Shown: piece after piece, positions 28,045 to 32,416 of the stretch
How positions within the stretch are numbered: the first letter of the stretch is position 1
Layout: each line of letters starts with the position of its first letter
Assembly: GCA_951406725.2 (NCBI GenBank)
Contig: OX597831.1
Span: forward strand, 14,632,001 to 14,696,000
Direction: 5' to 3'
Source: Octopus vulgaris
Taxonomy: Eukaryota
DNA length: 64,000 nt
Notes under the pieces: generated by a model
The model's input: the letters and a program-made list of their open reading frames with translations, nothing else
Told to the model about the DNA's origin: nothing
The model's database searches: none
Made by a program: the position numbers and the translations under genes

Positions 28045-28094
28045 AATAAATGTTTTTGTTCATCAGAAATTATCTTGGCATAAGTATTCTTTAG
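28045..28094 (+). CDS. Possible upstream micro-exon of the PLA2-like gene (INVFVHQKLSWHKYSL, or only KLSWHKYSL from 28067)
   Basis: Strong donor AG|gtgagt at 28095; phase 1 gives GAA (Glu) joined to the 28315 exon; open frame; two candidate acceptors (tttcctcag 28044, tgttcatcag 28066). Confidence 0.45.
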
Positions 28095-28314
28095 GTGAGT
28101 TTGACATATAATTTATATAAACATTTAAACAAAAATAAGAAAGGTAGAAGTGAACAAGGAAGGAATAAGTCGCATGTTGCATTGAATTTCTTGGTGTAGA
28201 AATAGGTTTTAGTATATGCATCTATGCATATATATATATGAACACAATTATATATATACACACACTCTTATATATTGTCTTATAATATTTTGTTTGTTTT
28301 ATCCTCTGTTACAG

Positions 28315-28427
28315 AATGTCCACTTTTATCAATGGCCGGAAATTGCCAGTTTGCCGATATGTTGAAGATACCTTTCAGTTCTGTCACTCGAGATCTTTGC
28401 AACCGACACGCAATGTGTTATAACTGC
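28315..28427 (+). CDS. Internal coding exon of a conodipine-like secreted PLA2-fold protein (xCPLLSMAGNCQFADMLKIPFSSVTRDLCNRHAMCYNC)
   Basis: Polypyrimidine acceptor ttttatcctctgttacag at 28314 and donor gtaagt at 28428; 113 nt = 2 nt + 37 codons. C-x-x-H-x-x-C-Y-x-C motif as in conodipine CDRHDTCYHC (recalled from memory). Confidence 0.85.
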
Positions 28428-28668
28428 GTAAGTAGTCACCGAAGCCACACCCACTCCACCCTAACCATTGCATTGCATATTTAATTAATTTCCATTAATT
28501 GAAATTTCTCTGTTGTCTCATATCATCTCTTACATTTTCTGTTTGTTCGCCCGTTTCTCTCTTTGTCTCTGATCTTGTAAAGCTTCTTAGCATTTCCACT
28601 GGCCACAACAAGTCCACACATTCTATGTTCAAACAGGCCAGGTTCGGCCTCTCACACATTCTGTGCAA

Positions 28669-28905
28669 TACCTATTTCTTTACTACCCACAAGGGGCTGC
28701 ACACAGAGGGGAAAAACAAGGACAGACAAACGGATCAAGTCGATTACATCGACCCCAGTGCGCAACTGGTACTCAATTAATCGACTCCGAAAGGATGAAA
28801 GGCAAAGTCGAATTCGGCGGGATTTGAACTCAGAACGTAACAGCAGACAATATACGGCTACGCATTTCGCCCGGCGTGCTAACGATTCTGCCAGCTCGCA
28901 GCCTT
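28669..28905 (-). mobile_element. SINE B
   Basis: Well-conserved reverse copy. Confidence 0.85.
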
Positions 28906-29357
28906 TCTATATCATTCTATAAATAAACAGTGATATAACCCCGAGATAATGCGTGGTTAATTGAAAACTTTGAAAAAGTATTGCATTTGACGCAATAAGA
29001 ATACTTGAGGGTTAAAATGTTTAGGGAAACAGGCAGCATGGAAACATAACAGCCAAGATTATTCTAGCATCTTTTATGAACTAATCTAAGAAAATTTAAA
29101 TGATATAACACTGCTATGTTGAAAACAATTATTAACTAAATTACGCATCCTAGTAAGATAAACCAAGGGAGACAACTCTAAAGCCATCCCTTAAAGGCAA
29201 CCTATATTTTAGTTAATTTCATTAAAGCAAACATTCTAATTACCTCCCTTACTTCTTTTGAACAGAATTAGTTGATTTAGCATTCACAAAATGATGGTTG
29301 TCATCGCTAGTTGTGTAATTATAATTTGGTAAAAATTCTTTGGTATATTGCATCTTG

Positions 29358-29469
29358 CGGGTTCAGTCCCACTGTGTGGCACCTTGGGCAAGTGTATTCT
29401 ACTATAGCCTCGGGCCGACCAAAGCCTTGTGAGTCTATGTGGTAGACGGAAACTGAAAGAAGCCTGTTG

Positions 29470-29516
<47 letters not shown>

Positions 29517-29740
29517 ATGCTTGTGTGTATGCTTGTGTGTCTGTGTTTGTCCCTCCAACATCGATTGACAACCGATGCTGGTGTGCTTACGTCTCCGTAA
29601 ACTAGCGGTTCGACAAAAGAGACCGATAGAATAAGTACTAGGCTTACAAAGAATAAGTTCTGGGGCGATTTGCTCGACAAAAAGGCGGTGCTCTAGCATG
29701 GCCGCAGTCAAATGACTGAAACAAGTAAAAGAATAAAAGG
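29358..29740 (+). mobile_element. SINE A (5'-truncated), in the PLA2-like intron
   Basis: gggttcagtcccactg...aagtaaaagaataaaag. Confidence 0.85.
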
Positions 29741-30109
29741 AAAACTCCATTTTGTTATTCAGTTCCGCTTTTGCCGCCGTTTATCCCTCTGACCAAAGGC
29801 ATTCCATCCTTTCTGCTTCCCAGACAATATATCTAGGAGTACATTATCCAATGTATACTTAATCGTTTTTAAAAGGATGGCGACGTGTAGAATAATGAAG
29901 ACGTGGCTTCTAGGATCGTATATTCTTGTAGGTTAGGAGAGCTTTAGATGTCCACAAAACGATTAGTATATCACCATCACGATGCGAACGTTGGATAACG
30001 TTGGCAGAATTCACCCTTATTTATTTACTTCAAAGTTTTTAAACGCTCATTTCCAGTTATCTGAGATCCTTTCCATCGAAGAAGGCTCTGATGTTATTGT
30101 ATCATTACA

Positions 30110-30550
30110 AGGCGGCGAGCTGGCAGAAACGTTGGTACGCCGGGGGAAATATTTAGTGGTATTTCGTCTGTTTTTACGTTCAGAGTTCACCGAGGTTGAT
30201 TTCACCTTGCGTCCTTCCGGAATCGATAAAATAAGTACCAGTCGAGCACTGGGTTCGATGAAATCGACTATGCCTTTCTCCGAAGTTAGTGGCTCAGTGA
30301 CAAAATTTGAAATCAATATTGGTTTAATTCTGAGGCAGCGAGCTAGCAGAAACGTTAGCGCGCCGGGCGAAATGCTTAGCGGTATTTCGTCTGTCTTTAC
30401 GTTCTGAGTTCAAATTCCGCCGAGGTCGACTTCACATTTCATCCTTTCTGGGTCGATGAATTAAGTACCAGTTACGCACTGGAATCGATCTAAACGATTG
30501 GTTCATTCGTCCAAATTTTCGGCTTTGTGCCTGAAGTAGAAAAGGTTATT
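30110..30550 (+). mobile_element. Two tandem SINE B copies (30110-30320, 30333-30550)
   Basis: ggc(g/a)gcgagct(g/a)gcagaaacgtt head occurs twice. Confidence 0.8.
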
Positions 30551-30725
30551 GCAAGACCGATTGTAAGTGATGAGTGCTTCTTCCGCGAGTTCTCTATCCG
30601 TGCTTGGGTTTCCATTCGAATATAAGTCCCTTCATATTGTCCGTCAGTCTCAAAAGCACTGAAAAGTAAAGGGCTGTCGGCACTACCCCTCCCTATTTGA
30701 CTAAGTGATATAAAAAACGTGAGTT

Positions 30726-30863
30726 CATTATTTACATTATTTTTATTCAACGGATATTTGTCCTCATCTTGTTTCTTGTTAGCAACGTTTTGTACTCTCC
30801 AGCCTTCACCAAGTGTCCCAGGGGAATTTCGAACCTGGGTTTTTTCCGATGTTGTTGTTGTTG

Positions 30864-30947
<84 letters not shown>

Positions 30948-31357
30948 TCACTATCTGGAATCGAACTCGGAATCTTGGGGTAGCTCGCGCTAGAGGCATA
31001 TGGCGTATTGATTAAGAGCGCGAACTACTAGCCCCAAGATTCCGAGTTCGATTCCAGACAGTGACCCGAGTAATAATAATAATGATGATGGTGACAACAA
31101 CAACAACAACAACAACAAAAACAATAACAACAACAACAATAATAATAATAATAATGATAATAATAATGATGATGATAATAATAACACCGGAAAAATAACA
31201 CAGGAATGAGAACCCAGGTTCGAAATTCCTCCGGGATCCCTGTTGAAGGCTAGAAACTTTGAGGTAACAAGAAACAAATTTCGTACAAATGTCCGTTAAA
31301 TGTAAATAATGTAAATAACGTACATAATTCCTCATCTCTTGAATAAAATAAAATTGT
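30726..31357. mobile_element. Head-to-head inverted dimer of tRNA-headed element D, 12-bp flanking direct repeat
   Basis: Arms about 30726-30991 (-) and about 30995-31357 (+); aaaacgtgagtt at 30714-30725 and 31358-31369. Confidence 0.8.
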
Positions 31358-31624
31358 AAAACGTGAGTTACTGAGCAGTCCTGGCAATAAAAGGCGTTCC
31401 GCTCGACAATATTCCGACTTTTGTATACCTAAGACTTCATTGTCCAATGTCCTCACCTGTCTTCACGACGGCTGTTACGTGATTTGGAGGAAACAGGAAA
31501 ACCTACACATTAAGAAAATGTTAAATTAGGAAATTAAGATAATTAAAATTAACGAATCTTTAATGTAAAATTCAGGTTTAGAAATTTAACATTTATAGAC
31601 TGGAATTTAGAGTTTTCCTTTCAT

Positions 31625-32013
31625 TCATTTACTTGTTTCAGTCATTTGACTGCGGCTATGCTGGAGCACCGCCTTTAGTCGAGCAAATAGACCCAGGACT
31701 TATTTTTTGTAAGCCTAGTATTTATTCTATCAGTCTCTCTTCGGGAACTGCTAAGTGACGGGGACGTAAACATACCAGCATCGCTTGTCAAGCAGTGTTG
31801 GGTGGGGAGAACAAACACAGACACACAAACATACACACACACACACATATATATACGACGGGCTTCTTTCCGTTTCCGTCTACCAAATCCACTCACAAGG
31901 CTTTGGTCGGCCTGAGGCTATAGTAGAAGACACTTGCCCAAGGTTCCACGCAGTGGGACTGAACACGGAACCATGTGGTTGGTAAACAAGCTACATACAC
32001 CACTTCTGCGCCT
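31625..32013 (-). mobile_element. SINE A, in the PLA2-like intron
   Basis: Full-length reverse copy. Confidence 0.85.
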
Positions 32014-32215
32014 ATAAAATTTTATAAAATTTGGGGCAAGAATTCTAGACTAGAATTTTGCGATCAAGTTGAGGATTTTGCGATGAAGTTTTTGTCTTAG
32101 GATGGTTTTTGTTTCCACTAATTTGCTGCACCAAAACAATCGTTCAGTGTCTGTTGTTTTTTTGCATCGATCTATCGCCACTCATTTTTGTTTTTATGCT
32201 ATTTATATATTACAG

Positions 32216-32416
32216 GGTTCTTCAATGCGGTTAGGACCAACAGTGTGTGACCGAGGCTTCCTTGCCGATTCAATTAAATCTTGCGACAACAATATTGAGT
32301 GCATGCGGGAAGCGAACACATTCCTCAGTTTGATGAAAGTAGCTCACAAGTACAACAGCACGCCGAACCGCCTTTGCGAACGACCGTGCGTACGTGACTA
32401 CGTGATCGGCCTGTGA
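32216..32416 (+). CDS. Terminal coding exon of the same gene (GSSMRLGPTVCDRGFLADSIKSCDNNIECMREANTFLSLMKVAHKYNSTPNRLCERPCVRDYVIGL*)
   Basis: Acceptor ...atttatatattacag at 32215; phase 0 matches the upstream donor. CD-x-x-F, C...C...A pattern of conodipine/group IX-type PLA2; complex GC-balanced sequence in an otherwise repetitive region; TGA at 32414-32416. Confidence 0.85.
   Translation, partial: GSSMRLGPTVCDRGFLADSIKSCDNNIECMREANTFLSLMKVAHKYNSTPNRLCERPCVRDYVIGL

Follow-up and report, generated by a model that had tools for sequence, protein, structure and literature searches.

We examined a 64,000-nucleotide stretch of the Octopus vulgaris genome (contig OX597831.1, positions 14,632,001 to 14,696,000, forward strand; hereafter the window), which contains the last two coding exons of a gene whose product ends in a 10-cysteine domain related to the secreted phospholipases A2 (sPLA2). 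In the explanation that we favor and consider probable, this gene encodes a long acidic, granin-like precursor for the secretory granules of nerve cells, with a tail that is predicted to be catalytically inactive. The analysis ties an orphan insect neuropeptide-like precursor, known as fliktin or Pea-NPLP, to genes without a name, or with a wrong one, in deuterostomes (a hemichordate and echinoderms) as well as in chelicerates, a priapulid, a brachiopod, an annelid and molluscs. The conserved part of this family is the PLA2-derived domain without its calcium ligand, not the peptides that have been sequenced. This suggests a function that can be tested across the family, and it offers a candidate for a granule-matrix protein of invertebrate neurons.

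Gene structure and product

When joined in phase 0, the two exons of the window (Table 1) encode a domain of 104 amino acids with 10 cysteines, 100% identical to the last 104 residues of the NCBI models P0003 and P0004 of Octopus sinensis. The exon borders read ag/AA TGT ... TGC/gt (28315-28427) and ag/GGT ... TGA (32216-32416); translated separately, the exons give 37 and 66 residues, with five cysteines apiece. An initial annotation of the window had read this domain correctly from the sequence, including the helix CNRHAMCYNC with the alanine codon GCA at 28410-28412 and the retained Asp of the downstream CD pair. Splicing was assessed with contigs from four sequencing runs of four studies, placed on 28010-28670, whose origin from RNA is presumed and which carry no tissue label. 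In each of the four runs a single contig spans 28313-28428; one of its loose ends agrees with the exon at 32217 and the other with an exon ending at C18:14623623 (C18 denotes coordinates on the source contig). The evidence for the junctions consists of these loose ends, with no single alignment across both exons and the whole intron; because the contigs skip the introns, they demonstrate the spliced form. The phase-0 junction 28427/32216 that had been proposed is thus confirmed by contig ends in all four runs and by the match to P0003 and P0004.

The further exon proposed at 28045-28094, with a 28094/28315 junction, finds no support. This segment is covered in none of the four runs, the contigs of which join across it (rare use could escape contigs), its sequence is absent from P0003 and P0004, and position 28315 is joined instead to the exon ending at C18:14623623, which lies 36.7 kb upstream and 8.4 kb before the window. 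No alternative letters are listed at the GCA codon in the contigs of the four runs, in which rare variants are dropped, and the earlier statement that A-to-I editing yields no Asp is correct, the edited codon GCG still specifying Ala. SINE-like (short interspersed element) repeats recur around and inside the last intron, at 27800-28010, 28680-28905, 29350-29730, 30110-30550 and 31620-32010 of the window, and long trinucleotide tracts lie 3' of the stop codon at 32416.

The model P0004 maps to five places on the contig, and the gene comprises five or six coding exons, with all those upstream of 28315 located outside the window. The first three exons differ from P0004 in 4 of 669 residues and contain no stop. 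O. sinensis and O. bimaculoides both have an isoform X3 in which a 111-nt exon takes the place of the second exon, such that a conserved middle helical block is dropped and the Cys tail is retained; the two exons, C18:14588242-14588736 and 14597351-14597461, are both of phase 1-1 and alternate between isoforms X2 and X3 in the two species. The gene had been described as hidden, but NCBI already predicts it: a protein search with the last exon returned eight proteins among 14 candidates, headed by O. sinensis models of 647 and 775 aa, and the name given to the gene is 'glutamic acid-rich protein-like', which is a misnomer.

Nor is the product the small stand-alone secreted protein that had been envisaged, the domain being instead the tail of an acidic precursor of 647-775 aa. 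The octopus protein contains 28-30% Asp plus Glu (22-30% across six cephalopod-type proteins) and 11-14 KR/RR sites, is free of Cys between leader and tail, and carries 550-670 residues of acidic body ahead of the domain. Its N-terminus shows a hydrophobic stretch followed by KKR, and this hydrophobicity points to a putative signal peptide. One locus was found with each exon as query, which is a lower bound, and a His-Asp conodipine-like paralogue was not found in the octopus genome with PF09056 or P0055 as query. Pfam returned nothing useful for the single exons or for six full proteins, and the octopus domain has no Pfam match.

The phospholipase-related domain and its family

Among 1.84 billion representatives, a profile of five cephalopod-type domains matched 93 at E<=0.001, and 33 of these reached 1e-10. 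Most of the matches are proteins of 350-970 aa with a hydrophobic start, an acidic body, paired basic sites and a 10-Cys tail, and these long forms occur both in protostomes (molluscs, arthropods, an annelid, a brachiopod and a priapulid) and in deuterostomes (a hemichordate and echinoderms). Among the 30 records that were looked up, the named members include the molluscs Sinanodonta, Mactra, Dreissena, Argopecten and Plakobranchus; the other protostomes Owenia, Lingula, Priapulus, Tachypleus, Limulus, Nephila, Oppia, Macrobrachium and Hetaerina; and the deuterostomes Saccoglossus, Strongylocentrotus and Anneissia. A further search extended this list by a scorpion, by sea stars and by additional spiders and mites. 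There are no chordates among the named matches, which is weak evidence.

The residues at the active site were tallied in 144 proteins, of which 116 show the pattern C..[HY]..CY.C; the other 28, mostly fragments with some chance matches, were dropped. Because this pattern fixes His and Tyr, the counts of these two residues carry no information. We classed as long those records with at least 300 residues before the motif (n=84, isoforms and near-copies counted). In these, the residue after His/Tyr is Glu in 43, Gln in 27, Ala in 5, Leu in 3, Lys in 2, Asp in 2, Asn in 1 and His in 1, so that Asp is absent in 82 of the 84 and Glu or Gln is present in 70. The 32 shorter records include 17 His-Asp proteins, two of which are named conodipine-like, and 15 that mostly resemble fragments of long forms. 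The [DN]GC loop ahead of the helix is found in all 17 short His-Asp records versus 4 of the 84 long ones. The downstream Asp is retained in 81 of the long records, and in 72 of them Asp or Asn adjoins the loop Cys. In bacterial sPLA2 structures, the calcium loop binds calcium.

The initial annotation singled out the His-Ala pair and read an old trait of the family as a local peculiarity. The pair is not the telling event, because the family lost the Asp long before, and the change by itself is a minor octopod detail. The five Ala records come from two Octopus species and Argonauta, and Ala is seen nowhere else; other relatives mostly have Glu or Gln, and only 2 of the 84 long records carry Asp. 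Because two records sister to the octopods carry Glu after His, and a change from GAA to GCA takes one base, the octopod Ala likely derives from the Glu of the family. Both Asp records among the long forms belong to one Limulus cluster. These sequences, P0062 and P0113 of Limulus polyphemus, are long-form His-Asp proteins without the [DN]GC loop, nested among His-Glu forms of chelicerates, and the Limulus row sits within the chelicerates in the tree as well; this His-Asp pair is likely a reversion.

Sequence comparison supports descent of the domain from sPLA2 well, and structural comparison does so modestly. A 43-row profile of the family aligned with an 11-row profile of His-Asp proteins at an hhalign probability of 99.4% (E 4.8e-21, 95 columns, 26% identity), a match that is not independent, the His-Asp set having itself been retrieved with the octopus-type profile. 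In this set, all 11 rows match PF09056, and bacterial and fungal sPLA2 structures are matched at E 9e-12 to 5e-08. With the 43-row profile, the PDB yielded four matches, the first three being bacterial sPLA2s (E 0.011-0.041), and with a 5-row profile, chance matches only. The AlphaFold model of the domain is all-helical (predicted local distance difference test score, pLDDT, 91.8; predicted template modeling score, pTM, 0.85). This model gave no Foldseek match at E<=0.001, the bacterial PLA2 8k1w ranking fifth with the highest probability, 0.21; a shallower model (pLDDT 71) likewise gave none at that threshold. When 31 Foldseek chains were compared with VIA, 8k1w came first with Z 6.3 (root-mean-square deviation 3.0, 81 residues), followed by Z 3.9, and values of Z <8 may be generic for helical bundles; against 48,161 representatives, generic helical bundles came out on top (best Z 5.7), with no PLA2 among the best 50 rows, a negative that does not exclude the fold. 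For the conodipine-like PLA2 fold first proposed, the profile comparison sustains the relationship and the structural match is modest. For group XII PLA2, PF06951 has no match above its curated cut-off for the octopus protein, and 2 of 43 family domains match it weakly (best E 0.0036). A conodipine-like entry of InterPro/PANTHER may group these proteins.

A tree of 54 domains (115 columns), rooted at the midpoint with no outside root, separates 39 long-type rows from 15 short His-Asp rows with support of 100/98, and it contains deuterostome (98/94), spiralian (99/90) and cephalopod-type (100/100) groups. This topology fits one orthologous group as old as the bilaterians, with a single origin unproven under such rooting, and the family likely dates to the bilaterian ancestor. 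The domain is the most conserved part of the protein: its identity to four relatives is 96, 79 (Argonauta), 63 and 59%, versus 91, 41, 35 and 37% for the rest. Outside the domain, the middle helical block scored above all 100 shuffles in 12 of 30 test proteins, with strong homology within the spiralians (Lingula, 52 bits; Owenia, 56 bits) and a weak match in Priapulus; the N-terminal block passed in 7 of 30, once at an unrelated place.

The intron after CYxC seems to be common to relatives, given that in five records the reading continues beyond the motif with Val-Ser and that, at the acceptor, Gln-Gly opens 9 of 13 fragments. In P0086, a His-Gln fragment that may extend the range of the family, an apparent short in-frame intron is read through where the octopus intron sits. 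Two further models, P0037 (Owenia) and P0137 (Oppiella), have vWFA or vWFC domains following or accompanying the domain and represent either real fusions or merged gene models.

The predicted neurosecretory role and its alternatives

The case for a neural precursor comes from insects. The damselfly member P0078, a profile match at E 8.3e-05 that is placed among the long forms in the tree, holds five linear motifs that are also read in the Pea-NPLP precursors of Tenebrio and Zophobas (PMC9552230). At the C-terminus of these beetle precursors lies a 10-Cys domain that carries His-Gln and almost matches the octopus in its spacing (8-17-5-2-10-11-5-24-3 in the octopus versus 6-17-5-2-11-11-5-25-3 in Tenebrio, the latter counted by eye). 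In the published sequences the Tyr is missing and Asn occupies the position of the downstream Asp (PMC9552230). The fliktin/Pea-NPLP precursors, of about 680-970 aa, also share with the octopus protein a signal-peptide-like start, many paired basic sites, the lack of Asp after His and a short N-terminal stretch, L..AL..(L/I).R..R, that is similar by eye. We therefore regard the octopus protein as probably orthologous to fliktin, but not as fliktin proper, because the insect peptide motifs are absent in the octopus. Identity with another insect precursor, baratin/NVP (prohormone-2), was rejected, two beetle precursors of this type being about 320-340 aa long with no Cys tail (PMC6585902, PMC12604039, PMC13478068).

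Pea-NPLP has been equated with PaOGS36577 and ant fliktin, and its peptides, detected by mass spectrometry (MS), occur in the frontal ganglion, antennal lobe, terminal ganglion and corpora cardiaca (PMC9552230). Fliktin is reported from the cockroach brain and retrocerebral complex (PMC12604039) and listed in termites (PMC10148640), and in the predatory bug Picromerus the transcript stands at 62-77 fragments per kilobase per million (FPKM) in heads, compared with 3-4 in the gut and 0.1-1.5 in the salivary glands (PMC10570428). By analogy with these insects, a neural role in the octopus appears likely. The four papers found to name fliktin/Pea-NPLP make no mention of phospholipase in the main text, and no description of the wider family or of a PLA2-derived tail was found in the literature, the first descriptions (Zeng 2021, Habenstein 2021) being outside that search. 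The domain motifs are absent from one supplementary file of PMC8557429 (Thiel et al. 2021), the main text of which contains neither 'fliktin' nor 'phospholipase', and the gene was not found in the three supplementary files searched of PMC9712504 (Styfhals et al. 2022).

Taken together, these observations translate into a simple model. The spliced gene yields an acidic precursor-like product with a PLA2-related tail, which its hydrophobic start would direct into the secretory pathway. As with fliktin/Pea-NPLP, prohormone convertases would then cut at KR/RR sites to release linear peptides in ganglia and neurohaemal organs. Judging from sPLA2 chemistry, a tail with no Asp after His and an altered [DN]GC loop would bind no catalytic calcium and hydrolyze no phospholipid. 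Substitution of Asp49 abolishes activity in PLA2 (PMC12650257, PMC6635587), and the Lys49 homologues of snakes, in which this residue and related positions have changed, are described as inactive (PMC12650257). Because the octopus protein has no Asp after His, it is likely a pseudo-enzyme, as the initial annotation had proposed, and we are fairly confident in predicting a tail devoid of PLA2 activity. The tail might keep a disulfide-locked fold and a lipid-facing surface that sort or tether the acidic body at the granule membrane, which is a guess that we put forward as possible but on the whole doubtful.

Several observations weigh against this model. The structure searches back the fold only modestly (best Z 6.3). 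The arthropod group in the tree is weak (87/64), with two long-branched pancrustacean rows and no outside root. The insect peptide motifs do not occur in the octopus, and three motifs that were searched for were found, among the proteins compared, in P0078 only. The profile of the middle block beat all shuffles in none of nine arthropods and none of seven deuterostomes, and when profiles of this block from spiralians and arthropods were compared, E was 0.017 and 2 of 60 shuffles scored as high. By these comparisons, molluscs and arthropods show no significant homology outside the Cys domain. The octopus runs carry no tissue label and are only presumed to be RNA. Finally, retention of the downstream Asp (81 of 84 long records) and the Limulus His-Asp cluster would also fit residual activity.

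The nearest rival, which we consider rather unlikely, is that the Cys domain itself acts as the signal once released, as a protein hormone or receptor ligand rich in disulfides, for which the acidic body would serve as spacer. Such a role would agree with the domain being the most conserved part of the protein, with the RRR site located seven residues ahead of its first Cys in Octopus, and with isoform X3, which skips the exon of the conserved middle block and retains the domain. However, no fixed release site is seen, because the last KR/RR site lies 29-191 residues ahead of the domain in the seven other proteins checked. Moreover, every beetle peptide listed from MS derives from the linear part (PMC9552230), even if such methods would hardly reveal a disulfide domain of 11-12 kDa. 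It is less probable still that the domain has remained an enzyme, that is, a calcium-independent or low-activity lipid hydrolase using the retained His and downstream Asp in granules or after release. Apart from the two points that would fit residual activity, this possibility draws on the Asp or Asn by the loop Cys (72 of 84) and on the acidic Glu being the commonest replacement (43 of 84), but the position after His also tolerates Ala, Leu, Lys, Gln, Asn and His, the beetle precursors have neither the Tyr nor the downstream Asp, and the snake Lys49 homologues are described as inactive (PMC12650257).

A body that is very acidic and of low complexity, followed by a disulfide domain at the end of the protein, could also suit a structural protein of the extracellular matrix, or one that binds calcium, outside the nervous system, and the four deuterostome members checked (P0041, P0056, P0061 and P0096) have only 0-3 paired basic sites. 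Nevertheless, KR/RR sites are many in most protostome members and the insect counterpart yields peptides in nervous tissue (PMC9552230), which makes a matrix role improbable. The salivary or venom function suggested initially, with the protein as a pseudo-PLA2 like the Lys49 proteins of vipers, finds no support and appears most improbable of all. Octopuses are venomous, and the protein is presumably secreted and is homologous to proteins annotated as conodipine-like. On the other side stand a single locus (a lower bound), the high conservation of the domain, the acidic body of 550-670 aa, the occurrence of members in filter feeders and deposit feeders, and an insect relative that is neuropeptide-like, with a transcript biased to the head rather than to the salivary glands (PMC10570428). 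An implication is that a conodipine-like match in the transcriptome of a venom gland or a mollusc can stem from this housekeeping precursor and not from a toxin.

Beyond the gene, the window consists of repeat-rich animal DNA, in which broken frames of long interspersed elements (LINE) and transposase-like fragments are the other features recorded (Table 1).

Table 1. Features of the gene and of the window. Positions refer to the window unless prefixed with C18 (source contig coordinates).
Feature	Position	Strand	Basis and remarks
First coding exon, with start, signal-peptide-like	C18:14582388-14583561	+	P0004 mapping; ends phase 1
Second coding exon	C18:14588242-14588736	+	P0004 mapping; ends phase 1
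Alternative exon, 111 nt	C18:14597351-14597461	+	Isoform X3
Third upstream coding exon	C18:14623279-14623623	+	P0004 mapping; ends phase 1; joined to 28315 by contigs
Intron of 36.7 kb, part inside the window	1..28314	+	Contig junction to 28315
Exon candidate of the initial annotation, AG/GT-bounded, intronic	28045..28094	+	Unsupported as exon
Penultimate coding exon	28315..28427	+	Phase 1 to phase 0, 113 nt; Cys 1-5 of PLA2-like domain, including CNRHAMCYNC helix
Gly-Asn-Cys where His-Asp relatives show [Asp/Asn]-Gly-Cys; likely calcium-loop equivalent, altered	28338..28346	+	Alignment
His codon CAC and Ala codon GCA, in place of the sPLA2 His-Asp pair	28407..28412	+	Sequence, alignment with His-Asp forms
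Intron, phase-0 GT-AG, 3788 nt, directly after CYxC motif	28428..32215	+	Sequence, contigs; contains SINE-like repeats, microsatellites
Last coding exon	32216..32416	+	66 aa, 5 Cys, conserved CD Asp (32249-32251), stop TGA
Broken LINE-type reverse-transcriptase/endonuclease-like frames	53573-55712, 58556-59605, 4447-4770	+	Translations, by eye
Broken LINE-type reverse-transcriptase/endonuclease-like frames	18344-18922, 38541-39617	-	Translations, by eye
Tc1/mariner transposase-like fragments	5013-5411, 7469-7747	+	Translations, by eye
Tc1/mariner transposase-like fragment	47955-48389	-	Translation, by eye

Comparison with known systems

The conodipines (group IX sPLA2) and the conodipine-like proteins of abalone, clam and jellyfish share with the octopus protein a homologous Cys framework and the core C..H..CY.C ... 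CD. Conodipines are short proteins (signal, alpha chain, linker, beta chain) with His-Asp and calcium-dependent activity (PMC4278219, PMC3914837). In contrast, the octopus protein has an acidic body of 550-670 aa, an unbroken C-terminal domain, His-Ala and no [DN]GC loop, and it lies on the opposite side of the 100/98 branch of the tree; it is not a conodipine by membership. The bacterial and fungal sPLA2s (PF09056; 8k1w, 7ygk, 1faz, 4aup) resemble the octopus domain in their all-helical fold but are active His-Asp enzymes with no acidic pro-region. As in the viper Lys49 homologues, the calcium-binding Asp next to His has been lost and the fold kept. The viper proteins, however, are recent, basic, small venom proteins of another PLA2 group, whereas the octopus family lost its Asp in ancient times and its gene is conserved among animals that are not venomous.

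The vertebrate granins (chromogranins, secretogranins and VGF) are acidic secreted proteins with abundant paired basic sites, from which peptides are derived, and the octopus protein resembles them in build only. It is not a granin by membership: no granin Pfam family is among the matches of six proteins at E<=1, and we know of no granin with a PLA2-derived tail. We nevertheless offer, as a tentative idea to which we give less than even credence, that the family is a pan-bilaterian counterpart of the granins, in which an sPLA2 would have lost its calcium ligand before the split of protostomes and deuterostomes and become a neurosecretory tail that sorts or anchors dense-core cargo, with fliktin as one branch.

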